A stretch of DNA of 64,000 nucleotides from NCBI GenBank assembly GCA_030612885.1, contig JAUWMZ010000004.1, positions 17,631 through 81,630 of the forward strand. The letters run 5' to 3'. This DNA comes from Candidatus Nealsonbacteria bacterium. GTDB lineage: Bacteria; Patescibacteriota; Minisyncoccia; Minisyncoccales; JAGMDC01. Both the position numbers and the translations under genes were made by a program. This document shows positions 32,905 to 51,566 of the stretch, piece by piece. Position 1 is the first letter of the stretch. Each line of letters opens with the position of its first letter. The notes below the pieces were generated by a model that worked only from the letters and a program-made list of their open reading frames with translations, was not told where the DNA came from and searched no databases.

Positions 32905-32906
32905 GA

Positions 32907-35273: not shown

Positions 35274-35350
35274 ATCATATTAACATACTAACATATTAAC
35301 AAAATTCAAATTCAGAATGTTAAAACGTTTGAATGTTAAAATGTTGAAAT
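35274..35350 (+). repeat. hairpin spacer, TTAACAT/ATGTTAA word family
   Basis: catattaacatactaacatattaac...gaatgttaaaacgtttgaatgttaaaatgttg. Confidence 0.75.
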
Positions 35351-35351
35351 A

Positions 35352-35699: not shown

Positions 35700-35786
35700 A
35701 ATATAATCTTATAACAACATACTAACGTATTAACATATTAACAAAAATTAGTGTTAAAATGTTAAAATGTTAAAATGTTAAAGTGA
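35700..35786 (+). repeat. hairpin spacer, TTAACAT/ATGTTAA word family
   Basis: caacatactaacgtattaacatattaac...gtgttaaaatgttaaaatgttaaaatgttaaag, ending 3 nt before the tuf ATG. Confidence 0.75.
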
Positions 35787-35789
35787 TTT

Positions 35790-36989: not shown

Positions 36990-37117
36990 AATTTTCAATT
37001 TTCAATTTTTATTCAATTTTCAATTCTTTAATTTTCAATTAGAAATTAGAAATTAGAAATTGATTGAAAATTAGAAATTAGAAATTGAAAATTAATTCGT
37101 TGTTCTTTTGAGATAAG
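36990..37117 (+). repeat. hairpin spacer, ATTTTCAATT / AATTAGAAAT word family
   Basis: 5' half tandem attttcaatt units, 3' half tandem agaaatt / aattgaaaatt units. Confidence 0.8.
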
Positions 37118-37456: not shown

Positions 37457-37462
37457 TATTAT

Positions 37463-37642
37463 CAACGAATTTACCAATCCTTTACGAATATACGAATATT
37501 TATATCATAAAACATGGTTTTTCTTTCTAAAACATTTATATTTTAGTAAAATTAATTAAGGGAAATAACCTACGGGTGTCGGGTTAACCCGACATTTTTT
37601 AATTCTATTCGTAAATTCGTATAAAATTTGTTATTCGTTGAT
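37463..37642 (+). repeat. long-range inverted repeat spacer, ACGAAT/ATTCGT word family, enclosing a terminator hairpin
   Basis: atcaacgaat...tacgaatatacgaata (5') versus tattcgtaaattcgtata...ttattcgttgat (3'); the 3' arm abuts the rplC ATG. Confidence 0.7.
37578..37600 (+). terminator. intrinsic terminator-like hairpin between rpsJ and rplC
   Basis: gtcgggttaacccgac (perfect palindrome) followed by attttttt. Confidence 0.6.
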
Positions 37643-37646
37643 TGTT

Positions 37647-38243
37647 ATGAAGTTTATCTTAGGAAAAAAATTAGAAATGTCTCAGTTTTTTAATGAAAAA
37701 GGAAAGGTTATTCCAGTAACCTTAATTGAAGCCGGACCTTGTTATGTCGCTCAAGTAAAGAATAAGGAAAAAGATAAATACGAAGCGGTTCAGCTTGGTT
37801 TTGAAAAAATACTTAAAAAGAAGAAAATAAAAAAAACAATGAAAGGAAAAGAATATAGATATTTAAGAGAGTTTAAAAATGGTAAAGAATACAAGATAGG
37901 GGACGAAATTAATGTTTCGCTTTTTCAAGAAGGAGATAAAGTAAAAATTTCTGGAATTTCTAAAGGAAAAGGATTTCAGGGGGCAGTGAAAAGATGGGGA
38001 TTTCATGGAAGAAATGCTACTCACGGAGTTAAGCATGAGCAAAGAACCCTGGGTTCAGTAGGAAGTGCTTATCCGGAAAGAGTAATCAAAGGAAAAAAAA
38101 TGCCCGGCAGAATGGGAGCCGAGAGAGTGACAGTTAAAAATTTAAAAATAGCGAAAGTTGATAAAGAAAATAACTTATTGGCAGTTGAAGGAGCAGTGCC
38201 AGGAAGACGCGGGACACTACTTGAAATACGTTCGGGAATATAG
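37647..38243 (+). CDS. rplC: 50S ribosomal protein L3
   Basis: Start moved to ATG 37647 (MKFILGKKLEM); SKGKGFQGAVKRWGF; last codons and TAG lie in a repeat-element terminus. Confidence 0.95.
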   Translation: MKFILGKKLEMSQFFNEKGKVIPVTLIEAGPCYVAQVKNKEKDKYEAVQLGFEKILKKKKIKKTMKGKEYRYLREFKNGKEYKIGDEINVSLFQEGDKVKISGISKGKGFQGAVKRWGFHGRNATHGVKHEQRTLGSVGSAYPERVIKGKKMPGRMGAERVTVKNLKIAKVDKENNLLAVEGAVPGRRGTLLEIRSGI

Positions 38244-38248
38244 GCAAT

Positions 38249-38396
38249 CGCTCGGAAAGTAATTTTTAGGAGACGCTCATTCGCTTCCAGCGAGCGAATT
38301 CGCTCAGTTCTCGGCAAAATTCGAGCACTCAAGATGTTGAGTGCTCGACCAAGCAATTTTGCCTCGAGGTGCTCCATAAAAATTACTTTCCTCGCT
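38249..38396. mobile_element. GC-rich ~148-nt multi-stem repeat element, copy A (MITE-like / structured RNA)
   Basis: About 95% identical to 58959-59108. 15-bp outer stem ggaaagtaattttta/taaaaattactttcc; hairpins attcgct/agcgaat and cgagcactcaa/ttgagtgctcg; ggcaaaatt/aattttgcc. Confidence 0.8.
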
Positions 38397-38481
38397 TAAA
38401 TATTTTTGTGAAACTTGTTGCCTCGCTTTTCAGAAAGATTAGAAAATAAAAAAAAATCGGCAACATTACAACATTATAACA

Positions 38482-39135
38482 ATGCCAACCATTCCAGTTT
38501 ACAATCAAAAAGGTGAAGAAACAGGAAAAACAGAATTACCTTCTGAGATATTTGAGGTTGCTTTTAGTCCTGATTTGGTTCATCAGGTTGTTGTTTCGCA
38601 AATGGCAAATCGAAGGCAGGTTAGCGCTCATACTAAAGACAGAAGTGAAGTGCGCGGAGGAGGCAAAAAACCCTGGCGGCAAAAAGGAACCGGAAGAGCA
38701 AGACATGGCTCTATCCGTTCACCTTTATGGAAGGGAGGAGGCGTAACATTTGGTCCGACTAAAGAGAGAAATTTTAAAAAAATAATTCCTAAAAAAATAA
38801 AAAGAAAAGCTCTTTTTATGGTTTTAAGCCAAAAGAAGAAAGATAATGAATTGGTTGTCTTAGATGAGTTGAAGATTGAGAAACCAGAGACAAAAATAAT
38901 GAAAGGAATAATCCAGAATCTGAAATCAAAAATTAAAAACATAAAAACAGAAAGTTTTCTAATCACTTTGCCAAAAATGGATAAGAATATCATTTTATCA
39001 ACCAGAAACATTCCTAAAATAGATACAATTCAAGCAAAAGAATTAAATTGTCTTGATATTTTAAATTATAAATACTTAATGCTTCCTAAAGAAGCAGTTG
39101 AAGTAATAAAAACTACGTTTTTAAAATCCCAATAA
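38482..39135 (+). CDS. rplD: 50S ribosomal protein L4
   Basis: VSAHTKDRSEVRGGGKKPWRQKGTGRARHGSIRSPLWKGGG. Confidence 0.96.
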   Translation: MPTIPVYNQKGEETGKTELPSEIFEVAFSPDLVHQVVVSQMANRRQVSAHTKDRSEVRGGGKKPWRQKGTGRARHGSIRSPLWKGGGVTFGPTKERNFKKIIPKKIKRKALFMVLSQKKKDNELVVLDELKIEKPETKIMKGIIQNLKSKIKNIKTESFLITLPKMDKNIILSTRNIPKIDTIQAKELNCLDILNYKYLMLPKEAVEVIKTTFLKSQ

Positions 39136-39263
39136 CCTATAATAATTTTCAATTTTCAATTTTCAATTTTCATTCAATTTTCAATTTAATAATTTTCAAT
39201 TAGAAATTAAAGAATTAGAAATTTATTAGAAATTAGAAATTAGAAATTAGAAATTTAAAACCT
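39136..39263 (+). repeat. hairpin spacer, ATTTTCAATT / AATTAGAAAT word family
   Basis: aattttcaattttcaattttcaattttcatt...attagaaattagaaattagaaattagaaattt. Confidence 0.8.
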
Positions 39264-39704
39264 GTGGCTTTACTTGATATCTTCAAAAGGAAGAAGAAAA
39301 AGGAAGAGAAAATTGAACCCGTAAAAAAGAAAGAAGAGGAGGCGAAAGAACCTCCTAAAGTTAGTGTTTCAAAACCCAAGCCCGCTTTCGTTAAAGCTAC
39401 GGCGGGCAGGGAAAAAAAGATTGATTTGGCTTGGAAGATTTTAGAGACACCTCATATTTCTGAAAAAGCCACTGATTTAACAAAGCAGAACAAATATGTT
39501 TTTAGGGTTTTTCCTAAATCAAATAAAAAAGAGATAAAAAAAGCAGTGGAAGATGTTTACGGGATAGATGTTTTAGATGTTAGAACTATTAAAATTCCCA
39601 GAAAGAAGAAGATGAGAGGCAGGGTTTCTGGCTGGAAAAAGGGCTATAAAAAAGCAATTGTGAAAATAAAAGAAGGCCAGAAGATAGAACTGTTACCTCG
39701 ATAA
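39264..39704 (+). CDS. rplW: 50S ribosomal protein L23 with Lys-rich N-terminal extension (GTG start)
   Basis: Core ILETPHISEKATDL...YVFRV; about 55-aa extension containing the KATAG hairpin insert. Confidence 0.9.
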   Translation: MALLDIFKRKKKKEEKIEPVKKKEEEAKEPPKVSVSKPKPAFVKATAGREKKIDLAWKILETPHISEKATDLTKQNKYVFRVFPKSNKKEIKKAVEDVYGIDVLDVRTIKIPRKKKMRGRVSGWKKGYKKAIVKIKEGQKIELLPR

Positions 39705-39708
39705 ACCT

Positions 39709-40539
39709 ATGAAAAAATATAAACCAACAACACCGGGAAGGAGAGGAATGACTAAAACAGATTCTTCTTTTTTAACTAAGAAAAAACCTGAAAAAGGTTT
39801 GCTTTCAGCAATCAGAAAAAGGGGAGGAAGAAATTTAGAAGGAAGAATTACAATCAGGCATCGGGGCGGCGGAGCGAAAAGAATGTATAGACATACTGAT
39901 TTTGGCCAAGAGAAAATTGATATTCCGGCAAAGGTTATTGCTTTAGAGTATGATCCTAACCGTTCTGCTTTTATTGCTCTTTTGGAATATCAAGACAAAG
40001 AGAAAAGATATATTTTGGCTCCCCAAGGATTAAAAAAGGGCGATGAAATAATGATTTCAGAAAAAACAGAACTTAAGCCGGGAAATAGAATGAAATTAAA
40101 AAATATTCCAGTCGGAACTTTGGTCTATAATGTTGAGCTTGAGCTAAACAAAGGAGGAATTATTGTAAAAGGAGCAGGCACTACAGCAAAGGTTTTAGCT
40201 CAAGAAGGAGGGTACACTCATCTTGTTCTTCCTTCTTCTGAAATTAGGAAAGTGTCCAGAGAATGTTTTGCTTCAATAGGCATAGTTTCAAACCCTGAAC
40301 ATAGATATGTCACAATAGGAAAGGCAGGCAGAACACGTCATAAGGGTAAAAGATCCCATGTCAGAGGTACGGCAATGAATCCTGTAGATCATCCACATGG
40401 CGGTGGAGAAGGGAGAACCGGGATTGGGATGAAGCATCCTAAAACTCCTTGGGGCAAGCCGGCCTTAGGAGTAAAAACAAGAAAGAAAAAATGGACAGAC
40501 AAGCTTATTATTAAAAGAAGAAAGAAGAAAAAGAAATAA
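39709..40539 (+). CDS. rplB: 50S ribosomal protein L2
   Basis: GRNLEGRITIRHRGGG, GTAMNPVDHPHGGGEG. Confidence 0.97.
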   Translation: MKKYKPTTPGRRGMTKTDSSFLTKKKPEKGLLSAIRKRGGRNLEGRITIRHRGGGAKRMYRHTDFGQEKIDIPAKVIALEYDPNRSAFIALLEYQDKEKRYILAPQGLKKGDEIMISEKTELKPGNRMKLKNIPVGTLVYNVELELNKGGIIVKGAGTTAKVLAQEGGYTHLVLPSSEIRKVSRECFASIGIVSNPEHRYVTIGKAGRTRHKGKRSHVRGTAMNPVDHPHGGGEGRTGIGMKHPKTPWGKPALGVKTRKKKWTDKLIIKRRKKKKK

Positions 40540-40548
40540 TAAATAAAT

Positions 40549-40866
40549 ATGGCAAGAAGTCTTAAAAAAGGTCCTTATGTGGACCAAAAATTATTAAAAA
40601 AAATGGGCAGATTTAAGAAAGGCGATAAAGCGATTATTAAGACCTGGGCAAGAAGTTGTACTATATCTCCAGAAATGGTTGGTTTTACTTTTGGCGTCCA
40701 TAACGGTAAGGAACATATTCCTGTCTTTGTTAGCGAAGATATGGTAGGTCATAAACTGGGAGAATTTGCTCCAACTAAAAAATTTACGAGACACGGAGGA
40801 AAAATGCAAAAAGAACAGGAAATGAAAGTCAAAGAACAAGAAAAAGAAAAAACAAAAACATCTTAA
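40549..40866 (+). CDS. rpsS: 30S ribosomal protein S19 (Lys/Glu-rich C-terminal extension)
   Basis: [39 protein letters not shown]. Confidence 0.96.
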
Positions 40867-40916
40867 CATTTCCAAATTTATTATTTGTTAGTATGTTAAA
40901 ATGTTAGCATGTTTAT
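40867..40916 (+). repeat. short spacer of the TTAACAT/ATGTTAA word family
   Basis: ttgttagtatgttaaaatgttagcatgtttat directly before the rplV ATG. Confidence 0.55.
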
Positions 40917-41453
40917 ATGCCTATTACAGCGAGATTAAAGTATCTTCATATTGCTCCGAGAAAAGTTCGTTTAGTAACTGATTTGATTCGCGGAAAAACG
41001 GTTGAGGAAGCTCAAAAGATTTTGAATTTTAGTTCGAATAGAGCTTCTCAGCCATTATTGAAATTACTTAAATCCTGTATAGCTAATGCCAAAAATAATT
41101 TTCAAATTGAGCAAGAAAACCTTTTTATATTAAAGATTTTTGTTGATGAAGGACCAAAACTAAAAAGATGGCATGCTCAATCAAGAGGTCGGGCTGCTGA
41201 AATTCAAAAAAAGAGTTCCCATATTTCTTTAGAAATAAGTGAGATTAAAAAGAAAACTAAAAAAATTAAAAAGGTAGCAAAAACAAAAGAAAAAATTGTT
41301 GAAAAGAAATCCTCTCTTGCTGAAGTTAAGGGAGACAAGGTAGACAAAGAAGCTCCAAAAATAGAAAAACCAAAAACAATCATTAGGAAAGAGAGACCTG
41401 TGCCCAAAATAAAACAAACCATGAAGAGAGTATTTAGGCGAAAAGCCTTTTAA
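40917..41453 (+). CDS. rplV: 50S ribosomal protein L22 with ~70-aa Lys-rich C-terminal extension
   Basis: LHIAPRKVRLVTDLIRGK..., RGRAAEIQKKSSHI then KKKTKKIKKVAKTKEK... Confidence 0.93.
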   Translation: MPITARLKYLHIAPRKVRLVTDLIRGKTVEEAQKILNFSSNRASQPLLKLLKSCIANAKNNFQIEQENLFILKIFVDEGPKLKRWHAQSRGRAAEIQKKSSHISLEISEIKKKTKKIKKVAKTKEKIVEKKSSLAEVKGDKVDKEAPKIEKPKTIIRKERPVPKIKQTMKRVFRRKAF

Positions 41454-41456
41454 ATT

Positions 41457-42140
41457 ATGTCTCATAGAGTTCATCCAAAAGCATACAGATTGAGAGAAAC
41501 AAACGACTGGGATTCTCGATGGCAAACTAAAAGAAATCTCCCGGAATATTTAAAGGAGGATTTTATAATAAGAGAGTTTTTAGAAAAAAAATTGAAAGAT
41601 TCCGGAGTTCAGAGTATTGAAATTGAAAGATTTTCCGGTAAAGTCAATGTTATTATTAATACTTCAAAACCAGGTTTTATTATTGGTCGTGGCGGAAAAG
41701 GAGCAGAAGATATTAAAAGAGATTTAGAGAAAAAAATCATTAAAAGTTATAAATTATCTATTAATAAAAAGAAAATAACTTCTTTGTCTCAAGAAAAAAA
41801 AGAGATGAGAATTGAAATTAGAGAGATAAGAAATCCTTGGGCACATTCAAGAATTATTGCTCAATGGATTGCTCAACAAATTGAAAAAAGAATGCGTTAT
41901 CGGAGAACGCTTAAACAGGCATTAAGCAAGGTTATGGTAAATAAAGAAATAAAAGGAGTGAGAGTAGAAGTTTCTGGTCGTTTAGACGGAACTAAAATTG
42001 CTCGGCGAGAATGGCTTCATGTTGGTCATCTTCCTCGTCAAACTTTAAGAGCAAAGATTGATTATGGAACAGCAACGGCCCACTGTACTTATGGAGCAGT
42101 AGGAGTGAAAGTTTGGGTATACAAAGGCGAACAGTTTTAA
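41457..42140 (+). CDS. rpsC: 30S ribosomal protein S3
   Basis: HRVHPKAYRL, KH domain GFIIGRGGKGAEDIK, GRLDGTKIARREW. Confidence 0.96.
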   Translation: MSHRVHPKAYRLRETNDWDSRWQTKRNLPEYLKEDFIIREFLEKKLKDSGVQSIEIERFSGKVNVIINTSKPGFIIGRGGKGAEDIKRDLEKKIIKSYKLSINKKKITSLSQEKKEMRIEIREIRNPWAHSRIIAQWIAQQIEKRMRYRRTLKQALSKVMVNKEIKGVRVEVSGRLDGTKIARREWLHVGHLPRQTLRAKIDYGTATAHCTYGAVGVKVWVYKGEQF

Positions 42141-42233
42141 TCCACGAATAAAATCACGAATAAAAGAATCACTAATTATCACGAATAATTATTAGTGAAT
42201 ATTCGCGATTAAAATTAGTGATTTATTAGTGGT
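42141..42233 (+). repeat. hairpin spacer, CACGAAT/CACTAAT versus ATTAGTG/ATTCGCG word family
   Basis: ccacgaataaaatcacgaataaaagaatcactaattatcacgaataa | ttattagtgaatattcgcgattaaaattagtgatttattagtgg. Confidence 0.75.
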
Positions 42234-42638
42234 ATGTTGATGCCGAAAAAAATTAAACATCGTAAATGGCGAAAAGGCCGTTCAAAGGGGATAGAAAGGC
42301 GAGGAACTGAACTATCTTTTGGTAGTTATGGTTTAAAAGTTTTAGAAAAGAAATGGATTACTGCTCGTCAGATCGAGGCAGCTCGCCGAGCGATTATTAG
42401 ATATTTAAGAAAAGGAGGAAAACTTTGGATAAGAATTTTTCCAGATAAACCTATAACTAAAAAAGGAACAGAAGTTCCTATGGGCGGAGGTAAGGGAAGT
42501 GTAGAGTATTATGCTTTTCCAATAAAACCAGGCAGAATTATTTTTGAATTAGAAGGAATAAAAGAAGAAATGGCTAAGGAAGCTTTTAAAAGAGCAACAG
42601 ATAAATTGCCAGTAAAAACAAAATTTATCAAGCGATAG
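42234..42638 (+). CDS. rplP: 50S ribosomal protein L16
   Basis: [36 protein letters not shown]. Confidence 0.96.
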
Positions 42639-42647
42639 AAAAACTTT

Positions 42648-42830
42648 ATGAAGACAAAAGAGCTACAACAAAAATCCCAATCAGAACTTCAGCATATTTT
42701 AATAAAAAATCGTGAGAAGTTACGACAGTTGCGTTTTGATTTAGCTTCTGGTAAGGTTAAAAATGTTAGAGAAATTCGAAAAATTAAAAAAGAAATTGCT
42801 CAAACATTAACAATTTTAAAGCAACAGTAA
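42648..42830 (+). CDS. rpmC: 50S ribosomal protein L29
   Basis: 60 aa, ELQ...[26 protein letters not shown]. Confidence 0.9.
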
Positions 42831-42831
42831 C

Positions 42832-43062
42832 ATGAAAAAAGAATTAAAAGGAACAGTTGTTTCTAATAAAATGTCAAAAACTATAGTAGTAGAAGTGGAA
42901 AGGATAAAAGTTCATCCTAAATACAAGAGAAGATATAAAGTACACAAAAAATACAAAGCCCACAATGAAAAGGGAGAGTTTAAGGTAGGAGACAAAGTAA
43001 TTATTGAAGAATGCCGGCCATTATCTAAAGAGAAGAAGTGGAGAGTTATAAAAAAGGTTTAA
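42832..43062 (+). CDS. rpsQ: 30S ribosomal protein S17
   Basis: [20 protein letters not shown]...HPKYKR...HNE...[14 protein letters not shown]. Confidence 0.94.
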
Positions 43063-43186
43063 AATTTTCAATTATTTAATTTTCAATTTTCATTAAATTT
43101 TCAATTATTTAATTTTCAATTAAATAAAAATTAGAAATTGAATCATTAGAAATTTAATAGAAATTAGAAATTAGAAATTTCACATT
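43063..43186 (+). repeat. hairpin spacer, ATTTTCAATT / AATTAGAAAT word family
   Basis: aattttcaattatttaattttcaattttcatt...attagaaattgaatcattagaaatttaatagaaattagaaattagaaattt. Confidence 0.8.
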
Positions 43187-43558
43187 GTGATTCAGCCACA
43201 GACAATGTTAAAAATAGTAGACAATACTGGAGCTAAAATTGCTCAGTGTTTTAAGGTACTTGGCGGAACACGGAGAAGATATGCTCAAATCGGAGATATA
43301 GTTGTAGTTGCCGTAAAAAAAGCAGAACCGAGAAAAGCTGTTAAAAAACACGATAAAGTAAGAGCAGTAATTGTTAGGCAAAAAAAGGCATATAGACGTT
43401 CAGACGGCTCCTATATTCGTTTTGATGATAATGCAGCAGTTATTCTTGAAGGTACTAGTAAAGAGCCGAAAGGGGGAAGAATTTTAGGACCAGTGGCTCG
43501 AGAAATAAAAGAGAAAGGATTTGAGAAAATAGCTGGAATGGCAAAAGACATGGTCTAA
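43187..43558 (+). CDS. rplN: 50S ribosomal protein L14 (GTG start)
   Basis: MIQPQTMLKIVDNTGAK..., IRFDDNAAVIL. Confidence 0.96.
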   Translation: MIQPQTMLKIVDNTGAKIAQCFKVLGGTRRRYAQIGDIVVVAVKKAEPRKAVKKHDKVRAVIVRQKKAYRRSDGSYIRFDDNAAVILEGTSKEPKGGRILGPVAREIKEKGFEKIAGMAKDMV

Positions 43559-43648
43559 CCACTAATATTTACTAATTTTAATCACGAATACTCACTAATA
43601 ATTTATTAGTGATAATTAGTAATTTTTATTCGCGATTTTATTAGCGGT
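43559..43648 (+). repeat. hairpin spacer, CACTAAT/CACGAAT word family
   Basis: ccactaatatttactaattttaatcacgaatactcactaataa | ttattagtgataattagtaatttttattcgcgattttattagcgg. Confidence 0.75.
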
Positions 43649-43972
43649 ATGAAGATTAAAAAAGGTGACACAGTATTAATCATTTCAGGTAAAGACCGAG
43701 CCAGAAAAGGCAAGGTTCTTCAGGTTATCCCTAAAGAAGAAAAGGTTTTGGTTGAAGGTATTAATATAAGAAAAAAAAGTGTTAAACCAAAAAAAAGCGG
43801 AGAAAAAGGACAAATAGTAGAAATGCCCGGTCCAATTTCTGTTTCAAATTTGAAACTTATTTGTCCGAAATGTAAAAAAGCAACAAGGATAGAGTATAAA
43901 ATAATAAAATCGAAAGATGCGAGTAAGAAAACAAAAATAAGAATATGCAAAAAATGCCAATCAGAAATATGA
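43649..43972 (+). CDS. rplX: 50S ribosomal protein L24 with C-terminal Cys4 zinc ribbon
   Basis: KOW motif KKGDTVLIISGKDRARKGKV; CPKCKK...CKKC. Confidence 0.93.
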   Translation: MKIKKGDTVLIISGKDRARKGKVLQVIPKEEKVLVEGINIRKKSVKPKKSGEKGQIVEMPGPISVSNLKLICPKCKKATRIEYKIIKSKDASKKTKIRICKKCQSEI

Positions 43973-44523
43973 TTAAACTAAAAGACAAATATATTAAAGA
44001 AGCAATACCGGCTATGAAAGAAAAATTCGGTTATAAAAACAGTATGGCTGTTCCTAAAATTGAGAAAGTAGTGATTAATAATAGTTTTGGCAGGATGATA
44101 ATGGATAAAACATCTGATGAGAAAAAGAAAATTAAAGAAGCAATTATACAAGATTTGTCTTTAATCTGCGGTCAACGTCCAGTTTTAACTAAATCAAAAA
44201 AGTCCATTTCTACTTTTAAAGTTCGTGAAGGTATGGAAATTGGGGCAAAAGTTACTTTGAGAAAGAAAAAAATGTATGATTTTTTAGATAGGTTAATTCA
44301 TATTACTTTTCCTCGCTCTCGTGATTTTCGAGGCATTGACTCTAAATCAATTGATGAAAAAGGAAATTTAACCATTGCTATTAAGGAACATATTTCTTTT
44401 CCAGAAGTATCGCCAGAGAAGACAAGATTTCTTTTCGGGTTTGAGATAACTGTGGTAACTACTGCCAAAAATAAAAAACAGGGATTAGAATTATTAAAAT
44501 TGTTGGGATTCCCAATAAAATAA
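43969..44523 (+). CDS. rplE: 50S ribosomal protein L5
   Basis: Start placed at ATG 43969 (ATGA overlap with rplX stop); MIKLKDKYIKE..., FRGI...DEKGNLTIAIKEHISFPE. Confidence 0.94.
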   Translation: MIKLKDKYIKEAIPAMKEKFGYKNSMAVPKIEKVVINNSFGRMIMDKTSDEKKKIKEAIIQDLSLICGQRPVLTKSKKSISTFKVREGMEIGAKVTLRKKKMYDFLDRLIHITFPRSRDFRGIDSKSIDEKGNLTIAIKEHISFPEVSPEKTRFLFGFEITVVTTAKNKKQGLELLKLLGFPIK

Positions 44524-44535
44524 CTCTACGAAATA

Positions 44536-44721
44536 ATGGCGACAAAATCTCAAATTGAAAAATCAGAGAAAAAACCTAAGTTTAGTTCCCGAATTGTTCG
44601 GAGATGTTTTAGGTGTGGCAGAAAAAGAGGATATATGAGAAAATTTGGATTGTGTCGGATTTGTTTTCGGGAAATGGCAAACCAGGGCTTGATACCGGGA
44701 GTAAAAAAGTCGTCTTGGTAA
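44536..44721 (+). CDS. rpsN: 30S ribosomal protein S14, type Z (zinc-binding)
   Basis: 61 aa, CFRCGR...CRICFRE, ends KSSW. Confidence 0.95.
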
Positions 44722-44849
44722 AAATCCAAATTACAAAATCCAAATGTCAAATCAAATCCAAAATCCAAATGTCAAAAAAAGAGTTTTAGTTATTTGATAT
44801 TTAGTCATTTGACATTGAATTGACATTTGAGCTTTGACATTTGACATTC
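44722..44849. repeat. ~128-nt hairpin spacer, AAATCC/CAAATGTC versus GACATTTG word family; inverted copy of 49431-49556
   Basis: 44722-44780 is the exact reverse complement of 49498-49556 (59 nt); the rest matches apart from one 7-nt unit. Confidence 0.9.
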
Positions 44850-44855
44850 ACAATT

Positions 44856-45245
44856 ATGACTGATCCAATAGCCGATATGTTCAACAGAATAAAAAATGCT
44901 CAAGCCGTATTAAAACCTACGGTGAGTATTCCTTTTTCAAATTTAAAATATGAAATTGCTAAAATTTTAGAGAAAGAAAAATATATCAAAAAAATAGAGA
45001 AAAAGAGAAGAAAGATAGAAAAGACAATAGAAATTTCTCTTAAATATAATAAAAATATTCCGGCTATTGTTGAATTGCGAAGAGTTTCAAAATCAGGACA
45101 GAGAATTTATCTTCCAGTTCAGAAAATCAAGAGAGTAAAAGGAGGATTTGGTTCAGCCATTATTTCTACATCAAAGGGTTTAATGACAAATAGAGAAGCA
45201 AGAAAAAATAAGTTAGGCGGAGAGGTTATTTGCGAAATGTGGTAA
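44856..45245 (+). CDS. rpsH: 30S ribosomal protein S8
   Basis: Start moved to ATG 44856 (MTDPIADMFNRIKNA); the upstream 5 codons in the ORF track lie in the repeat. Confidence 0.95.
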   Translation: MTDPIADMFNRIKNAQAVLKPTVSIPFSNLKYEIAKILEKEKYIKKIEKKRRKIEKTIEISLKYNKNIPAIVELRRVSKSGQRIYLPVQKIKRVKGGFGSAIISTSKGLMTNREARKNKLGGEVICEMW

Positions 45246-45277
45246 TTTCCTTGCTTAAAATTTTAACTATTAAATTT

Positions 45278-45859
45278 ATGAGTCGTATTGGGAAAAAACC
45301 AATTGAAATACCAGAGGGGGTGGAAATAAAAATAGAGGATGGAAAAGTAGTAGTAAAAGGTCCCAAAGGCGAACTTTCTAAGGAAATTCGACCTGAAATT
45401 AGGGTTGAAATAAAAAATGAAGAACTTTATGTTTTTCCTAAAAAAGAAATTCAAGAAAACTCTGTTGTAAAAAAAGATTCAGGAAAGACAAAACAAATAA
45501 GGGCATTTTGGGGTTTAACTAGATCTTTTTTAGCTAATATGATAAAAGGAGTTGTTCAGGGTTATGAAAAGAAACTGGAAATACAAGGTTTAGGGTATAA
45601 AGCTTCTTTAGAAGGAAATGATTTAATATTAAACATCGGTTTTAGCCACCCCAAAAAAATTGAGACGCCAGAAGGCATAAAACTATCAGTAGAGAAAAAT
45701 ATTATTATTATTTCAGGTTTTGATAAAGAATTAGTAGGGAGAGTGGCTGCTGGAATAAGAAAAGTTAGGCCGCCAGAGCCGTATAAAGGAAAGGGAATCA
45801 GATATGTTGGTGAAGTTGTTAGAAAGAAAGTAGGAAAAAAGGCAGCAACCGCCGAGTAA
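45278..45859 (+). CDS. rplF: 50S ribosomal protein L6
   Basis: Start moved to ATG 45278 (MSRIGKKPIEIPEGV); PEPYKGKGIRY. Confidence 0.95.
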   Translation: MSRIGKKPIEIPEGVEIKIEDGKVVVKGPKGELSKEIRPEIRVEIKNEELYVFPKKEIQENSVVKKDSGKTKQIRAFWGLTRSFLANMIKGVVQGYEKKLEIQGLGYKASLEGNDLILNIGFSHPKKIETPEGIKLSVEKNIIIISGFDKELVGRVAAGIRKVRPPEPYKGKGIRYVGEVVRKKVGKKAATAE

Positions 45860-45861
45860 GT

Positions 45862-46034
45862 CGCTCGGGAATATAGTTTTTAGAAAATTTGCTCGGCAAC
45901 AAAGTTTCAAAGTACCGACCCTCAAAATCCCAGCGAGATTTTGGGGTCTAAGTTCTCAACGGCTGGCTTCTCGCTTCACTCGGAGACCATGCCCAGCCGC
46001 CTCCGAAGTTTACTTTGAAACTTATTGCCTCGCT
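45862..46034. mobile_element. GC-rich multi-stem repeat element, divergent copy C (same termini, different interior)
   Basis: Termini cgctcggg... and ...ttgcctcgct; stems aagtttcaaagta/tactttgaaactt, gaccctcaaaatc/gattttggggtc, ggctgg/cccagcc. Confidence 0.65.
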
Positions 46035-46081
46035 TAATTTTATTTGTAATTCGTTTTCATTCGTAAGAATATTAAAATACA

Positions 46082-46474
46082 ATGTTAAAGAAACAAGAAA
46101 AACGTGTAAGGCGCCATAAGAGAGTAAGAGCGAAAATATTTGGGACTGGTAGCATTCCTCGACTTTGTGTTTTTAGGTCAAACAAACATATTTATGTGCA
46201 GGTGATTGACGATGATAAAGGAAAAACTTTAGTTACGGCGAGCGATCAGGAGATAAAAAAGTTAAAAATTAAAAGTTCAAAGTTGAAAGAGAAAGAAGAA
46301 GAGAAAATAAGAACAGGTAAAATTGAGGTTGCTTATGAGATTGGGAAGTTAATTGCTGAAAAAGCCCTGAAAAATAAAATTAAAAAAGTTGTCTTTGACA
46401 GAGGAGGATACCGATACCATGGGAGAGTTAAAGCGCTTGCAGAAGGGGCGAGGGAAGCTGGATTAGTGTTTTAA
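46082..46474 (+). CDS. rplR: 50S ribosomal protein L18
   Basis: [59 protein letters not shown]. Confidence 0.95.
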
Positions 46475-46508
46475 ACCAGTTTAAAATTTTCAATCGTAAA
46501 TTAGTATT

Positions 46509-47003
46509 ATGTTTAAACAAAGAGAAAAACCAAAAGATGAGTTTGAATCCAAGTTGTTAGATTTAACTCGAGTAAGCAGGATGACATCCGGTGGACGTCG
46601 GCTTCGGTTCCGAGCCCTTATAGTGGTTGGTAACAAAAAAGGAAAAGTTGGAATAGGAGTTGCTAAAGGTAAAGATGTGGCTCAATCTATTGAAAAAGCC
46701 ACTCGTTTAGCAAAGAAAAATTTAATTGAGGTTCCAATTGAAGACGGAACTATTTTTTATGAAGTTGTGTCTAAGTTTGGAGCAGCTAAAGTTTTACTTA
46801 GACCTCAAAGAAAAACAAGAGGATTGGTTGCTGGCGGCACTGTTCGGGTAATTTGCGATTTAGCTGGAATTAAAAATATTTCTTCAAAGATTCTCGGAAG
46901 GACGGGAAATAAGTTAAATAACGCTAAAGCAACAATTGAAGCATTAGAGAAATTAAAAACTAAAAGCAAACATGCAATTACACCAACTACATCCAAAGCA
47001 TAA
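46509..47003 (+). CDS. rpsE: 30S ribosomal protein S5
   Basis: RVSRMTSGGRRLRFRALIVVGNKKGKVGIGVAKGKDV. Confidence 0.95.
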   Translation: MFKQREKPKDEFESKLLDLTRVSRMTSGGRRLRFRALIVVGNKKGKVGIGVAKGKDVAQSIEKATRLAKKNLIEVPIEDGTIFYEVVSKFGAAKVLLRPQRKTRGLVAGGTVRVICDLAGIKNISSKILGRTGNKLNNAKATIEALEKLKTKSKHAITPTTSKA

Positions 47004-47400
47004 ATCAAAAAGGAAAAAAAGAATTGGCCGTGGTGGTAAACGCGGTACTTATTCTGGTCGTGGAGTAAAGGGGCAAAAATCGCGTTCTGGAAGAAAGTTA
47101 GAGCCGATTATCCGAGGATTAATTAAAAGATATCCTAAGTTAAGAGGATATAAGTTTAAGGAATGGAAAACCAGGCCAGCTGTGGTTAATGTTGGCAGTT
47201 TAAAGAAATTTAAAACTGGAGAAAAAATTAATCCATCTGCCTTGCTTGAAAAGAAAATAATTCCTAAAATAAAAGGAAGAATGCCAAAAGTAAAAATTTT
47301 AGGGAAAGGGAAACTGACAAAAGCCTTAACTATAGAGGGTTGTGAAGTTTCCAAAAGCGCCACAGAAAAAATTGAGAAAGCTGGCGGCAGAATTGTATAA
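46972..47400 (+). CDS. rplO: 50S ribosomal protein L15
   Basis: KRIGRGGKRGTYSGRGVKGQKSRSG; overlaps the rpsE 3' end, so there is no room for rpmD (L30). Confidence 0.94.
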   Translation: MQLHQLHPKHKSKRKKRIGRGGKRGTYSGRGVKGQKSRSGRKLEPIIRGLIKRYPKLRGYKFKEWKTRPAVVNVGSLKKFKTGEKINPSALLEKKIIPKIKGRMPKVKILGKGKLTKALTIEGCEVSKSATEKIEKAGGRIV

Positions 47401-47408
47401 CATACAAT

Positions 47409-48710
47409 ATGAATTGGCTCAACAAAATAATCCAAATATTTAAAATAAAAGATTTGCGCAAAAAGATAATTTTTGTCTTGTTCATTTTTGCTGTTTTTCG
47501 ATTGATGGCGAATATCCCAATTCCGGGAGTAAATCTTGAAAATTTAAGAATGTTTTTTGCCAGCAATGAAAGTTTAAGTTTATTAAACTTGTTTACCGGC
47601 GGCGCATTGGAAAGATCTTCTATAGTAATGCTTGGGTTAGGGCCTTATATTACCGCTGTTATTATTCTTCAGCTTTTAACAATGATTTTTCCCCAATTGG
47701 AAAGAATGTACAAAGAAGAAGGAGAACAGGGCAGGCAAAAATTTAATCAGTTTGGAAGAATGTTAACTGTTCCTTTGGCGGCTATGCAAGGATTTGCAAT
47801 GTTGACCTTGCTTCAACGCCAGAGTCCGCCTGTAGTTGAATTTTCTTCTCCTGTTATGCTTTTTGCCGCTATTTTAAGCATTACTGCCGGAGCAGTATTT
47901 TTGATGTGGTTAGGAGAATTGATTACTGAAAAAGGAATTGGCAATGGCGTTTCTCTTTTAATTTTTGCTGGCATTATTGCTGCTTTTCCAATGTCTATTT
48001 ATCAAAGTTATTTTGACATTGAATCAAGTCCTGAAAAAACCTTTGCCTACCTTTTTTTCTTTATCTTAGCTTTAGTTATAATTTTCGGCGTTGTCTTAGT
48101 TAATGAAGCAAGAAGAAATATCCCTGTCTCTTACGCTAAGAGAGTAAGAGGAATGAAAATGTATGGCGGCGTTTCTACTTATTTACCTTTAAATCTTAAT
48201 CCGGCCGGGGTTATTCCTATTATTTTTGCTCTTTCTATTATGCTTTTTCCAGGAATGATTGCCAGCTTCTTGGGAGGAGCTGGGGGAGTTGTTGGCAGTA
48301 TTGCTCAAGCTGTTGGAGGTTTTTTTGACCCTCAAAGAAATCTTCTGGGCTATGGGATTTTCTATTTTCTTTTAGTGGTTCTATTTACCTTTTTCTATAC
48401 AGCAGTAACTTTTGACCCTAAGGCAATCTCTACTAATTTACAAAAAATGGGCGGGTTTGTGCCTGGTATTAGGCCAGGTTCTTCCACTGCTATCTTTTTG
48501 AAATATATTTTAAATAGGATCCTGCTCTTCGGAGCTTTATTTTTAGGAACAATTGCCGTAATGCCTTTTATGGTTAGCGCTATTACTAGTATTCAGACAT
48601 TTACTTTCTTAATAGGAGGAACATCTTTATTGATTATAGTGGCAGTAGTTTTAGAAACAGTAAAACAAATTAAAGCCCAGTTGCAGATGAGGGACTATGA
48701 TACGTTTTAA
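47409..48710 (+). CDS. secY: preprotein translocase subunit SecY
   Basis: 10-TM protein; MLGLGPYITAVIILQLL, GELITEKGIGNGVSLLIF. Confidence 0.96.
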   Translation: MNWLNKIIQIFKIKDLRKKIIFVLFIFAVFRLMANIPIPGVNLENLRMFFASNESLSLLNLFTGGALERSSIVMLGLGPYITAVIILQLLTMIFPQLERMYKEEGEQGRQKFNQFGRMLTVPLAAMQGFAMLTLLQRQSPPVVEFSSPVMLFAAILSITAGAVFLMWLGELITEKGIGNGVSLLIFAGIIAAFPMSIYQSYFDIESSPEKTFAYLFFFILALVIIFGVVLVNEARRNIPVSYAKRVRGMKMYGGVSTYLPLNLNPAGVIPIIFALSIMLFPGMIASFLGGAGGVVGSIAQAVGGFFDPQRNLLGYGIFYFLLVVLFTFFYTAVTFDPKAISTNLQKMGGFVPGIRPGSSTAIFLKYILNRILLFGALFLGTIAVMPFMVSAITSIQTFTFLIGGTSLLIIVAVVLETVKQIKAQLQMRDYDTF

Positions 48711-48783
48711 TGTCATTTTAACATTTTTTTAATTTATTTTTTGTTAATATGTTAACATATTAGTATATTAAGATGATTTTTTT
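48711..48783 (+). repeat. spacer of the TTAACAT/ATGTTAA word family
   Basis: tgtcattttaacattttttt...ttgttaatatgttaacatattagtat. Confidence 0.6.
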
Positions 48784-49482
48784 ATGAACAAGCCATTGAA
48801 TTTTACTTTCATAGGGAGATCTGGTTCAGGAAAAGGAACCCAGGCAAAACTTTTAATAAAGCACTTTGGAAATCTATTATATGTTTCCACTGGTGATTTA
48901 TTTAGAGATTTATCTAAAGCCAATACAGATACAAGCATAAGAGTTCAAAAAATAATAGAAGAAGGAGGTTTGCCGTTTGATGATTTAGCAGCTGCTTTAT
49001 GGATGCATAAACTTGCTTATAATCTTAAAGAAAATGAAGGATTTATTCTTGATGGCGCTCCTCGCAGAGTAAATGAAGCTCAAACATTAGACAGATATTT
49101 AGATTTTTTAGAAAGAAAAGAAACCTGTTTTAATTTGTTAATTGATATTTCCAGGCAGGAAGCATTTGACCGTTTATCAAAAAGACGAATTTGTAAGAAC
49201 TGTGGTCGTTTAATTCCTTGGGTTGGTGAGTTTAAAAAAATAAAAGTTTGCGACAAATGCGGAGGAGAATTAATTACTCGTGCTGATGATACGTCGGAAG
49301 CAATAAATAATAGATTAGATTATTACGAAGAGAGAGTAGCTCCAACTGTAAAATATTATGAAGAGCAAGACAGGTTGATAAAAATTAATGGCGAGCAATC
49401 TATAGAAGATGTTTTTAAAGAGATTCTAGAAAATGTCAAATGTCAAAGCTCAAATGTCAATTCAATGTCAAACGTCAAATGA
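48784..49482 (+). CDS. adk: adenylate kinase (zinc-lid type) with repeat-derived C-terminal tail
   Basis: GRSGSGKGTQAKLL, LDGAPRRVNEAQ, CKNCGR...CDKCGG; last ~17 codons (ENVKCQSSNVNSMSNVK) are encoded by the 49431-49556 repeat. Confidence 0.93.
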   Translation: MNKPLNFTFIGRSGSGKGTQAKLLIKHFGNLLYVSTGDLFRDLSKANTDTSIRVQKIIEEGGLPFDDLAAALWMHKLAYNLKENEGFILDGAPRRVNEAQTLDRYLDFLERKETCFNLLIDISRQEAFDRLSKRRICKNCGRLIPWVGEFKKIKVCDKCGGELITRADDTSEAINNRLDYYEERVAPTVKYYEEQDRLIKINGEQSIEDVFKEILENVKCQSSNVNSMSNVK

Positions 49483-49556
49483 CTAAATGTCAAATTATTT
49501 TTTTGACATTTGGATTTTGGATTTGATTTGACATTTGGATTTTGTAATTTGGATTT
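49431..49556. repeat. ~126-nt hairpin spacer, inverted copy of 44722-44849
   Basis: See 44722-44849; overlaps the adk 3' end and generates the spurious MDFGFDLTFGFCNLD N-terminus of the map ORF. Confidence 0.9.
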
Positions 49557-49563
49557 ATTAGCG

Positions 49564-50328
49564 ATGATTTTTATTAAAACTCCAGAGGAGATTAAAATAA
49601 TGGCTGAAGCAGGTAAAATCCTGGCAAAGATTATGAAACAGTTAATGGGGATGGTGGAGCCGGGAATTACCACTAAAGAACTCAATATGGCTGCAGAAAG
49701 CCATATTTTTAAGTTCGGAGCAGAACCGGGGTTTAAGGGTCCTATTTCTAAAGGTTACGGTGGTTTTCCAACTGCTTTATGTTCTTCGGTCAATCAGGTA
49801 ATCGTTCATGGAGTCCCTTCAAGTTATAAATTGAAACAAGGAGATATTTTGTCTTTGGATTTAGGATTAAGATGGAAAGGATATTTTGCTGATATGGCAG
49901 TAACAGTACCAGTAGGAGAGATTTCTCCAGAAGCTCAAAGATTGATTAAAGTAACAAAAAAAGCTTTGAAAAGAGGAATTAAAAAAGTTAGACCAGGAAA
50001 TACATTTGGTGATATTGGAAATACAATTCAAAGATATGTTGAATCACAAGGGTTTAATGTTGTGCGCGAGCTTTGCGGACACGGCATTGGCAAGGGATTA
50101 CATGAAGATCCGCAAATCTTGAATTACGGCAAACGCCATACCGGTCCAAAAATTAAGCCGAGTATGGTTTTTTGCTTAGAACCAATGGTGACAACAGGGG
50201 ATTGGCGTATAAAAAAATCCAAAGATGATAACGGTTTTGAGACCACTGACGGCTCCTTATCTGCGCATTTTGAACACCAAATGGCTGTCACTGAAACCGG
50301 AGTTAAGGTGTTGACAGAATTGGAATAA
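49564..50328 (+). CDS. map: methionine aminopeptidase, type I
   Basis: Start moved to ATG 49564 (MIFIKTPEEIKIM); VHGVPS, DMAVTVPVG, GHGIGKGLHEDP, LEPM. Confidence 0.94.
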   Translation: MIFIKTPEEIKIMAEAGKILAKIMKQLMGMVEPGITTKELNMAAESHIFKFGAEPGFKGPISKGYGGFPTALCSSVNQVIVHGVPSSYKLKQGDILSLDLGLRWKGYFADMAVTVPVGEISPEAQRLIKVTKKALKRGIKKVRPGNTFGDIGNTIQRYVESQGFNVVRELCGHGIGKGLHEDPQILNYGKRHTGPKIKPSMVFCLEPMVTTGDWRIKKSKDDNGFETTDGSLSAHFEHQMAVTETGVKVLTELE

Positions 50329-50466: not shown

Positions 50467-50528
50467 ATTTATTCCAAAAATTGTGCTATACTAAAAAAAG
50501 TTATAAGTTTCAAGTTTTAAAATTTATT

Positions 50529-50915
50529 ATGGCATTACCAAAATTCTTACAACCATTTTTGCCGTCTTATGATATTTCTAAGATGGATTTAGATGATCTT
50601 TATGATAAAAAATTAATCATAGAGGCGGTTTTAAATCAGGGAACAACAAAAGAAATAAAATGGCTATTTGTGACTTATAGTACTCGGGAGATTAAAAATG
50701 TTTTAAAAAATCCAAGCCGTGGTTGCTGGAATCCAAGAGTGCTTAATTTTTGGACAAAATTTTTTAGAATTAAAATTAACCCGATTATTTATGAAATAGC
50801 TATTTTAGACTTAAATCCTAATCCGAAAAAAAGAGAAAGATGGTTTAAGTTTATTAGAAAGAATGCCTCAAAAGAAACTTTAAAAAGATGGCAGGAATTA
50901 GGTATCTTAAGATAA
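50529..50915 (+). CDS. hypothetical protein, putative cognate antitoxin of the downstream AbiEii-like NTase
   Basis: Start moved to ATG 50529 (MALPKFLQPFLPSYD); 3-nt gap to the AbiEii-like gene; no domain recognised with confidence. Confidence 0.4.
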   Translation: MALPKFLQPFLPSYDISKMDLDDLYDKKLIIEAVLNQGTTKEIKWLFVTYSTREIKNVLKNPSRGCWNPRVLNFWTKFFRIKINPIIYEIAILDLNPNPKKRERWFKFIRKNASKETLKRWQELGILR

Positions 50916-50918
50916 TCT

Positions 50919-51566
50919 ATGAAAGAATTTATTCTTAATTGGAATCAAAAAAAGATATTAAAAAATATTTCTTTTTTAAAAAAAGATAAATTTTATCTTG
51001 CCGGAGGTACGGCATTGGCTTTACATTTTGGCCATCGAACTTCTCACGATTTAGATTTTTATACACCAAAACATTTCAGCTCTCAAACTATTTATAAAAG
51101 ATTCCAAAAAATATTTGAAAAAGAAAAAATATCTGATCCAGACATTTTAGAAGATACTTTAAAATTTAAATTAAATATTACCGATATTTCTTTTTTTAGA
51201 TATCCCTATGACTTAATTCAACCCTTAATTTCTTATCAGTCGGTTAACCTAGTCAGTCCTGAGGATATTATAGCCATGAAAATGGAGGCAATAATCGGTA
51301 GAGGATTAAAAAGAGATTTTGTTGATATTTATTTTGCTCTAGAAAAATATGGCATAAAGAAAATATTAAATTTTTATAAAAAGAAATATCCTGAGATTTT
51401 TAATGAATATAATTGTCTTACTAGTTTAACTTATTTTGAAGATGCTGAAAAAAAAGAACAAGGAAGAAAAAGAATTTATCTTTACGATAATGTTGAATGG
51501 AAAAATATAAAAGAATATATTGAGAGAGAAATTAAGAAATATCAATTAAACCAGATTAAAAAATAA
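50919..51566 (+). CDS. AbiEii/AbiGii-family nucleotidyltransferase toxin-like protein
   Basis: FYLAGGTALALHFGHRTSHDLDFYT and EDIIAMKMEAIIGRGLKRDFVDIYF are typical of the DUF1814/AbiEii NTase fold. Confidence 0.7.
   Translation: MKEFILNWNQKKILKNISFLKKDKFYLAGGTALALHFGHRTSHDLDFYTPKHFSSQTIYKRFQKIFEKEKISDPDILEDTLKFKLNITDISFFRYPYDLIQPLISYQSVNLVSPEDIIAMKMEAIIGRGLKRDFVDIYFALEKYGIKKILNFYKKKYPEIFNEYNCLTSLTYFEDAEKKEQGRKRIYLYDNVEWKNIKEYIEREIKKYQLNQIKK

Follow-up and report, generated by a model that had tools for sequence, protein, structure and literature searches.

Inverted copies of a small dispersed hairpin repeat flank the S8-to-adk segment of a Nealsonbacteria-like ribosomal-protein operon

The window analysed here is a stretch of 64,000 nucleotides (nt) from a Parcubacterium of the Candidate Phyla Radiation (CPR) close to Candidatus Nealsonbacteria and the Minisyncoccales, and all coordinates given below are positions of this window. 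Within its ribosomal-protein operon, two near-identical hairpin repeats lie in opposite orientations on either side of rpsH-rplF-rplR-rpsE-rplO-secY-adk (44856–49482, plus strand), a block that points the same way as the other genes of the operon and keeps the ancestral gene order, as in relatives. Pfam labels the products as S8, L6, L18, S5, L15, SecY and Adk, the genes that an earlier note on this DNA had named; the block itself is bystander sequence that lies outside the repeat. Copy 1 (44722–44848, 127 nt, plus strand), which has the family-consensus orientation, starts directly after the S14 stop codon (44719–44721), and copy 2 (49432–49556, 125 nt, minus strand) is inverted relative to it. 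Both copies stop exactly 7 nt short of the next ATG, that of S8 at 44856 and that of map at 49564; by eye, neither of these 7-nt gaps (44849–44855 and 49557–49563) nor several neighbouring spacers, with starts in 45–48 kb, contain a Shine-Dalgarno-like sequence. Copy 2 is not purely intergenic, as the adk open reading frame (ORF) reaches 51 nt into it, with the stop codon at 49480–49482. Comparing the translation of 48784–49482 with the adk ends of two related genomes, ..DILKALK in L004 and ..EILKNIS in L005 (L-numbers label the related loci and metagenome contigs that were compared), assigns to the element a C-terminal tail of Adk, residues 217–232 (NVKCQSSNVNSMSNVK), together with the stop codon (49432–49482, plus strand).

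A gapped alignment of the whole copies resolves them into five blocks: 59 nt of perfect identity, an indel in the loop, 16 nt with one substitution, a 7-nt indel, and another 41 nt of perfect identity. The first block is the exact inverted match reported in the earlier note, 44722–44780 being the reverse complement of 49498–49556. It makes up the A-rich 5' arm of copy 1 (44722–44780, plus strand), which consists, in this order, of the units AAATCCA, AATTACA, AAATCCA and AATGTCA, the half-unit AATC, the units AAATCCA, AAAATCC and AAATGTC, and an A run. The arm is followed by the loop region (44781–44791, plus strand, GAGTTTTAGTT), which forms the unpaired apex of the fold and is 9 nt longer than that of copy 2 (GAGTTT and GTT). 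The T-rich 3' arm (44792–44848, plus strand) is built from TTTGACA- and TTTGAGC-type units and ends with the conserved family terminus TTTGACATTTGACATT; its last 41 nt (44808–44848) match copy 2 perfectly. The sole substitution between the copies is at 44798 (T versus C), and the 7-nt indel is an extra unit, CGTCAAA, found in copy 2 only (49473–49479, plus strand). The adjoining halves had been said to differ by one 7-nt unit, gtttgac; this unit is CGTCAAA by rotation and is indeed there, but the loop difference and the substitution had gone unmentioned. The repeat had also been drawn to include 44849 and 49431, which mismatch each other, whereas the similarity spans 44722–44848 and 49432–49556. 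Counting gaps, the copies are 86.7% identical over 135 columns, with 116 of the 117 aligned bases matching. The core 10-mer AAATGTCAAA occurs nine times in the window against 0.67 expected, eight of these occurrences being within the two copies, and the inverted match is therefore not due to chance.

As the earlier note had also recognized, each copy is self-complementary, and folding gives one end-to-end hairpin on either strand. The minimum free energies (MFE) range from −25.7 to −39.2 kcal/mol with z-scores of −3.75 to −5.95, and none of 200 shuffled sequences was as stable; the lower end of this stability is the value for copy 1 (−25.7 kcal/mol, z −3.75), the upper that for copy 2 on the plus strand (−39.2 kcal/mol, z −5.95). 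A profile hidden Markov model (HMM) of the repeat family described below scores each copy nearly equally on both strands (copy 1, 70.9 on plus and 69.2 on minus; copy 2, 74.2 on minus and 68.5 on plus), so that it makes almost no difference whether a copy is called 'inverted' or 'direct'.

The inverted repeat is real and not an artefact. Both copies are base-for-base identical in an independent ENA assembly (ERZ4220366, L001) made with a different pipeline, whose 18.4-kb contig spans both of them and is 99.975% identical to the window, with only four differences over 15.8 kb, none of them in the copies. That an assembler had collapsed or duplicated a repeat is a possibility we regard as negligible. 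It draws on the fact that two short-read graph assemblies from Logan (L002 and L003) do break at these repeats, but the differences between the copies are not of the kind that a collapse yields, and the independent contig runs through both with identical sequence. The Logan contig breaks (window positions 44819 and 49461, the ends of L002) fall 30 nt inside the 41-nt perfect stretch; with an assembly graph of k = 31, a break at the repeat is expected, and it is therefore no sign of an alternative junction. Through such breaks inside the repeats, the Logan assemblies split the ribosomal-protein marker operon into pieces of 2–4.6 kb.

As the earlier note had advised, the junctions were compared with those of related genomes, 80 in number. 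In the closest one, L004, SecY is 97% identical and the DNA about 88% identical; in L005, SecY is 87% identical. The S14-S8 junction of L004 is empty, reading TAA-ATTTT-ATG with a 5-nt gap, and its adk-map junction is an ATGA overlap with no element, the ancestral overlap whose place copy 2 takes in the window. L005 has 32 unrelated nt in the S14-S8 spacer and an unrelated GC-rich hairpin in the adk-map spacer, so that neither of the two nearest relatives carries the element at either site. Among relatives in general, the S14-S8 spacer has a median length of 8 nt (n = 70) and the adk-map spacer of 2 nt (n = 67, including 26 ATGA overlaps). Since both sites are empty in the nearest relatives, the two copies are lineage-specific insertions, younger than the split from L004. 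This supports the recent copying that had been proposed for them: both insertions postdate the split from a relative with about 88% DNA identity, yet only one substitution separates the copies.

The two copies belong to a dispersed family. An exact 18-mer, CAAAATCCAAATGTCAAA, which is present twice in the perfect arm, matches at least 120 metagenome contigs, where the element of about 110–130 nt recurs in the same form; around the 18-mer the matches extend over 30–55 nt at 90–100% identity. The profile HMM finds 164 elements among the collected sequences, often several per contig. Family members are mostly 100–135 nt long (about 105–135 nt) and share one architecture: an A-rich 5' arm of 7–8-nt units (AAATCCA, AATGTCA, AAGYTCA, AATGACA) with a 4-nt half-unit in mid-arm, a loop, and a T-rich 3' arm of complementary units. 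Their ends are conserved, 5'-(T)AAATCCAAAT ... TTTGACATTTGACATT-3', with unrelated flanks beyond, and such discrete ends beside unrelated flanks are found at at least 60 independent sites. The number of units varies across the family; its invariant feature is a core that recurs periodically, as CAAA in the 5' arm and as TTTG in the 3' arm, with freely varying triplets in between. The conserved ends and the half-unit in mid-arm speak against the family being a mere artefact of base composition. With respect to genes, 99 of the 164 HMM members lie in co-directional spacers, 8 in convergent and 8 in divergent ones, 17 inside ORFs and 30 at contig ends; the ORF-internal members that we inspected are A-rich half-arrays in AT-rich contigs. 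Essential operons are among the sites occupied, for example L23-[element]-L2 (L116), S18-[element]-L9-DnaB-[element] (L145) and rpoB-[element]-rpoC (L163). Among the 80 related loci, blastn-short with the element gave no match, and the profile HMM later found diverged members in L026, L009, L058, L023, L071 and L021; those in L026, L009, L058, L023 and L071 are in other ribosomal-protein spacers of other Nealsonbacteria and have the variant units AATTCC/AAGCACC, ATCCGAA and ATTCCTA.

Judged by the proteins encoded beside the elements, the family is present in at least two phyla, the Parcubacteria and the Thermodesulfobacteriota. The RpoC of L163 clusters at at least 90% identity with Minisyncoccales and Yanofskybacteria proteins, and the PolA of L175 is 79–83% identical to proteins of Thermodesulfobacteriota, Syntrophaceae and Deltaproteobacteria bacterium RBG_16_48_10; two relatives of L175 have a diverged, partly decayed member in the orthologous spacer. 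The element-bearing Thermodesulfobacteriota-type contigs L116 and L175 keep an AGGAG between element and start codon. In the cluster of the L163 RpoC (P0002, P0010), NCBI RpoC proteins that group at at least 90% with Minisyncoccales and Yanofskybacteria are labelled 'Candidatus Pacearchaeota archaeon', a label that for a bacterial RpoC probably reflects a mis-binned or mislabelled metagenome-assembled genome.

Several members carry nested insertions of other palindromes in their loops or arms (L087, L102, L129, L131, L135, L145, L118, L180), which suggests that these metagenomes hold a broader community of small palindromic repeats. The same palindromes occur alone in Nealsonbacteria spacers (L039, L052, L054, L071); examples are ...TTCGACAAGCTCAGGAC.../GTCCTGAGCTTGTCGAAGGA and GCCTGCCTACCG...GGCAGGCAGG. 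The A-rich arm also occurs alone and in frame inside apparent housekeeping genes of AT-rich, CPR-like contigs (L141 at about 5958, L176 at about 9731, L196 at about 382 and about 1084; also L130, L170, L171, L179 and L192), where it would encode peptides rich in K, N, Q, S and P, such as KSKCQNPNVK, and recalls the Rickettsia palindromic elements fused into ORFs. A scan of viral contigs gave two matches without the element architecture, which we took as chance. We also considered a composite repeat of about 330 bp that holds the A-rich array (L155 at 6–334 and 3057–3388, L085, L121, L122, L149 and L117; 87–96% identity across six contigs) as an autonomous parent and rejected it, as it encodes no transposase (L155). 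Searching the open-access literature for the motif strings returned only unrelated primer sequences, and a search combining CPR with miniature inverted-repeat transposable elements (MITEs) returned nothing relevant; absence from a text search is weak evidence, and on this basis the family appears to be undescribed.

We consider it likely that the two arms of the inverted repeat are paralogous, recent copies of a small non-coding, near-palindromic dispersed repeat that entered the operon in opposite orientations, with the inversion geometry as a by-product. One copy would have been derived recently from the other, or from a third copy elsewhere in the genome, and the family would spread as a non-autonomous mobile element moved in trans. 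It may be moved by an enzyme whose substrate is hairpin or single-stranded DNA, a route suggested for REPIN/RAYT and IS200/IS605; such an enzyme is favoured because the copies have no target-site duplication and the whole unit is a hairpin, and a cut-and-paste DDE transposase is less likely. The insert would probably be tolerated between tightly packed essential genes by folding on itself and so keeping the upstream stop and the downstream start close together; these spacers of the host also show no Shine-Dalgarno spacing requirement.

A number of observations weigh against this interpretation. Neither a transposase, a RAYT nor a Y1_Tnp protein that could mobilize the element was found among the genes examined, that is, the 50 window ORFs scanned and the called genes of 42.9–58.7 kb. 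In 64 full-length copies, the two of the window among them, the flanks have neither a target-site duplication nor a conserved target, and a classical MITE mechanism is therefore unsupported. The adk-map insertion is not clean, as about 11 ancestral nt have been replaced and a 7-nt sequence, ATTAGCG, precedes the map ATG. Only two copies lie within the 64 kb, a count that covers the window only, and the metagenome contigs, having been seeded by the exact 18-mer, are biased to close relatives. Finally, a copy has probably been retained at S5-L15 in Nealsonbacteria, and copies persist at an orthologous site in Thermodesulfobacteriota (L207, L208), so that some copies of the family are old and may serve a host function.

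The earlier note had read the two copies as having the geometry needed for recombinational inversion. The geometry is right, but we found no support for a process. On this reading, the copies would be recombination sites for a programmed or recurrent flipping of the S8-to-adk segment, either as a switch or as structural variation, and, at a distance of 4.6 kb, they do match each other perfectly in inverted orientation over 59 bp and 41 bp; 59 bp exceeds the minimal homology usually quoted for RecA-dependent exchange. However, the window, the ENA assembly and the two Logan contigs agree in orientation, k = 31 accounts for the Logan breaks, and among the 80 related genomes the gene order from S14-S8 through adk-map is unchanged in all cases where both genes were located. 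The genes examined include no recombinase or invertase. Every gene of the block is essential, runs with the operon and has the place that it has in the relatives, and the repeat at its borders is a dispersed one without orientation preference whose two sites are empty in the closest relatives. A rare homologous inversion through the 59-bp identity could occur; its product would turn seven essential genes against the operon and would be selected out. Well-known invertible switches such as hin, gin and fimS rely on short repeats and on a dedicated recombinase encoded within the segment or beside it, and the segment contains a promoter or alternative gene ends. The likeness to them is limited to inverted repeats that bracket a segment, as here there are seven essential operon genes, no recombinase among the genes examined, and one orientation in every assembly. 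We therefore rate inversion as highly improbable. The inverted geometry is most likely incidental, a by-product of insertion, in line with the alternative that had been mentioned alongside, a palindromic element landing either way, which fits the empty sites in relatives and the large dispersed family found in both orientations.

A second copy might also have arisen without any transposition, through local growth of the 7–8-nt units by slippage, with gene conversion between pre-existing spacer hairpins accounting for the near-identity. The copies differ in the manner of slippage, by a one-unit indel and in the length of the loop, the number of units varies across the family, and heptamer slippage is a known source of repeat expansion (PMC4679880). 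We nevertheless find this explanation very unlikely: both sites are essentially spacer-free in relatives, so there was no resident hairpin to convert, the conserved discrete ends stand beside unrelated flanks at at least 60 independent sites, and the family occurs in two phyla.

The insertion of paralogous copies at the two sites can be set beside the remaining spacers of the operon. Spacer-by-spacer extraction of the L3-map region (window 37638–50325) showed that 10 of the 21 window spacers exceed 45 nt and are occupied by hairpins, compared with 12 of 21 in L004, and none of the occupied spacers is shared between the two in sequence and position. Among 63 relatives, the share of occupied spacers has a median of 24% and a maximum of 57%. 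Such rapid gain and loss is what mobile or fast-decaying selfish DNA predicts, unlike conserved regulatory RNAs. At least three further AT-rich families of spacer hairpins are present in the spacers of the str, S10 and spc operons, with a common plan of several 7–8-nt units, more units, a loop, and the mirror image, and at least some of them (as seen in the TTTTCAA family) have the mid-arm half-unit. Hairpins with TTAACAT units lie at 32903–32994, 35269–35361, 35711–35795, 40870–40926 and 48726–48781, those with TTTTCAA/GAAATTA units at 36970–37091, 39131–39256, 43051–43184 and 63847–63891, and those with CACTAAT/CACGAAT units at 8040–8110, 42141–42233, 43559–43648 and probably 37457–37637. 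Members of the TTTTCAA/GAAATTA family, 84–94% identical, occupy L4-L23, S17-L14 and tuf-S10 in the window and L3-L4 and L2-S19 in L004. A GC-richer family forms large nested hairpins with the ends GCTCGG...CCTCGC; two of its members, at 38256–38389 (L3-L4 spacer) and 58967–59100 (downstream of L25), are direct repeats 20.7 kb apart with 94% identity, and a related element of 222 nt lies at 45860–46081 in the L6-L18 spacer, while L004 has one in S8-L6 instead. The near-identity of the two copies had been said to contrast with the divergence of the other spacer families; this holds against three of them (87% with indels counted, versus 66–84%) but not against the pair 38256–38389/58967–59100 at 94%.

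Rather than selfish DNA, the hairpins could be functional elements of the mRNA kept by selection, for example RNase III or RNase E sites, stabilizers, attenuators or translational-coupling devices. Their placement is compatible with such a role, given that 99 of 115 classifiable members are in co-directional, operon-type spacers and that copy 1 directly follows a stop codon and both copies end 7 nt before a start. Hairpin formation is highly significant (z −3.75 to −5.95), the persistence at an orthologous site in L207 and L208 points the same way, and for ERIC and Correia elements there are precedents of co-transcribed hairpins that alter mRNA stability (PMC2229807). However, orientation relative to transcription is random (38 members in the same direction as the flanking genes, 32 in the opposite), and sense folds are no better than antisense ones, the more stable RNA strand being sense in 36 cases and antisense in 33 (p = 0.64), whereas the ERIC effect is orientation-dependent. 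The RNAalifold consensus consists of only 10 pairs at −2.3 kcal/mol. When 41 members were placed in an explicit mirrored register, 81.7% of the cells were paired compared with 80.4% in the shuffled control; pairing stems from the invariant CAAA:UUUG cores, while the variable triplets pair about half the time, and covariation is marginal. With so weak a consensus and so little covariation, we dropped the notion of a structure-selected RNA. Rfam 15 at the gathering threshold detects only two tRNAs in the window, and in a permissive Rfam scan of 44400–49900 the elements match only plant microRNA-precursor models, at 22–28 bits against cut-offs of 90–102. The many TTGACA hexamers led us to look for promoter-like sites, of which there is none in either copy, and the sole terminator-like call in the copies, which is weak, falls on the apical stem of copy 2. 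Turnover is complete between genomes with 97% identical SecY, and most relatives get by with spacers of 2–8 nt. Because orientation is unbiased, covariation marginal and target-site duplication absent, the evidence is against both a strand-specific RNA function and a classical DDE-type MITE. The results fit a symmetrical, DNA-level element, and we consider a function in the mRNA unlikely, though the least so of the alternatives to recent insertion.

The periodic core also raises the question of a protein that reads CAAAT/ATTTG at the DNA or RNA level, for which the elements would be arrays of binding sites, comparable to the proposal made for TAACTGA repeats (ribosomal protein S1, cold-shock proteins, CsrA). 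In its favour, the periodic CAAA/TTTG core is invariant amid freely varying triplets, and half-arrays without a partner arm exist. We have, however, no candidate protein, orientation is random, and the operon's other hairpin families are built from unrelated units (TTAACAT, CACTAAT, TTTTCAA), so no single protein could serve all of them; in addition, the same sequence in two phyla is a better match to horizontal spread than to a lineage-specific regulator. This explanation seems to us improbable.

With recent insertion of a dispersed repeat as the preferred reading, the finding itself is an ordinary one, a dispersed repeat of a known kind, the small palindromic dispersed repeats. It is most like ERIC and other MITE-like bacterial repeats (ERIC/IRU, Correia/NEMIS, RUP, RPE, YPAL) as reviewed by Delihas 2008 (PMC2229807). 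Like these, the copies are small (100–200 bp there, 125–127 nt here), non-coding and A+T-rich; each forms, over its full length, an imperfect palindrome, and its transcript pairs the 5' end with the 3' end in one long stem-loop; most occupy transcribed spacers between genes, facing either way, at sites that are filled in one genome and empty in a related one; in-frame fusions with ORFs occur (the Adk tail here, and the A-rich half-arrays in L141, L176 and L196); and some copies have insertions in the middle of the element. They differ from them in several respects. The 64 full-length copies have no target-site duplication, and the ends are not a terminal 5'-TA-3', as the left end is often TAAAT with T, C, A or G as first base and the right end is ..ACATT, after which any base may stand. 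Ladders of 7–8-nt tandem units make up the arms, in place of unique terminal inverted repeats, and the family occurs in two phyla, whereas the families listed are confined to a genus or family. A cognate transposase sharing the ends was found neither among the 50 window ORFs scanned nor on L155-type contigs.

REPINs are doublets of repetitive extragenic palindromes (REPs) that form hairpins and are mobilized by RAYT (Bertels & Rainey 2011, PMC3116915). With REPIN/RAYT and IS200/IS605 the present family shares symmetrical, hairpin-forming, non-autonomous units in extragenic positions, the lack of target-site duplications, and singlet remnants, here the half-arrays; by this analogy, their single-strand route would be the most compatible known mechanism. 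REPs are described as short (20–40 bp), G+C-rich palindromes with conserved GTAG or CGTC tags (PMC3733652). An identity with REPINs was rejected, as the units are A/T-rich 7–8-nt ladders, the consensus has no REP-like core or tag, and no RAYT or Y1 protein is among the 50 window ORFs; furthermore, compensatory changes are common in REPINs, whereas covariation is marginal here.

Tandem heptamers of this general kind are said to have been reported from cyanobacteria, as STRR sequences, by Mazel et al. in 1990. More recently, direct-repeat arrays of TAACTGA were described in Beggiatoaceae, Cyanobacteria and Bacteroidetes (MacGregor 2015, PMC4679880). Heptamer arrays and the present family both consist of short tandem units (7 nt there, 7–8 nt here), are intergenic and close to start codons, including those of ribosomal-protein operons, are patchily distributed across phyla without an evident transfer mechanism, and are in part found inside ORFs. 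There, however, one exact heptamer is present in 2–6 direct copies strongly oriented to the downstream start codon, whereas here mixed, imperfect units form two inverted arrays, a hairpin and discrete conserved ends, with no orientation bias (38 versus 32). CPR bacteria are also known to carry TIGR arrays, which belong to TIGR-Tas systems (Faure et al. 2025, PMC12045711); these too are repetitive non-coding arrays of Patescibacteria, and some are partly palindromic. By definition, their units are 36 nt long and comprise edge repeats, loop repeats and two variable spacers, and the arrays adjoin a Tas gene with a Nop domain; on this ground we rejected them, as the hairpins here have a 7–8-nt period, no spacers and a scattered, single occurrence, with no Nop or Tas among the window ORFs examined.

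Beyond these comparisons, we tentatively raise a broader possibility, which at present we find rather doubtful: that the family represents an undescribed class of horizontally spreading 'periodic-ladder' hairpins, free of target-site duplications and with a CAAA/TTTG core, whose arms are at least 90% identical between CPR Parcubacteria and Thermodesulfobacteriota and which colonize the tight spacers of essential operons (S14-S8, L23-L2, rpoB-rpoC, S18-L9-dnaB), where the folding of the insert would hold stop and start codons together, with fast turnover in Nealsonbacteria. The sharing between phyla could then stem from exchange of DNA between episymbionts and the organisms on or next to which they live.

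Other features of the window are given here for completeness. A 46-nt repeat (39373–39418 and 62300–62345, 83% identical) contains CCCGC...GCTACGGCGGGCA and lies where the ORFs of L23 and S2 extend beyond the N-terminus of the Pfam domain. As this domain begins only at residue 59 (L23) or residue 52 (S2), the repeat may lie upstream of the true start codons or may be translated. Two toxin-antitoxin-like pairs are wedged in housekeeping clusters (11991–12718 and 50481–51566): a HEPN/nucleotidyltransferase pair between ftsA and ftsZ, and a DUF6922/AbiEii pair directly downstream of map, in a region that does not align to L004 (about 650 nt there versus about 1100 nt). At 25378–26280 there are 903 nt without an ORF of at least 50 amino acids and without an Rfam match at the gathering threshold, followed at 26281–27384 by a 367-amino-acid ORF that partially matches adenylate-kinase/AAA_17 and would give the window a second ADK-like gene.

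As the two copies are selfish-looking repeats, the geometry of an inverted repeat is by itself no proof of an invertible segment and should not be read as a switch. For the organism, the comparison indicates that a reduced CPR genome tolerates hairpins of about 100–240 nt in half of the spacers of its ribosomal-protein operon, that these spacer elements come and go more quickly than the proteins change, and that adenylate kinase owes its present C-terminus to one of them. The breaks that such repeats induce in assemblies are a hazard for the binning and phylogenomics of CPR genomes. The family, with its occurrence in two phyla, could mark horizontal exchange and provide a test case for the movement of small repeats without a visible transposase.

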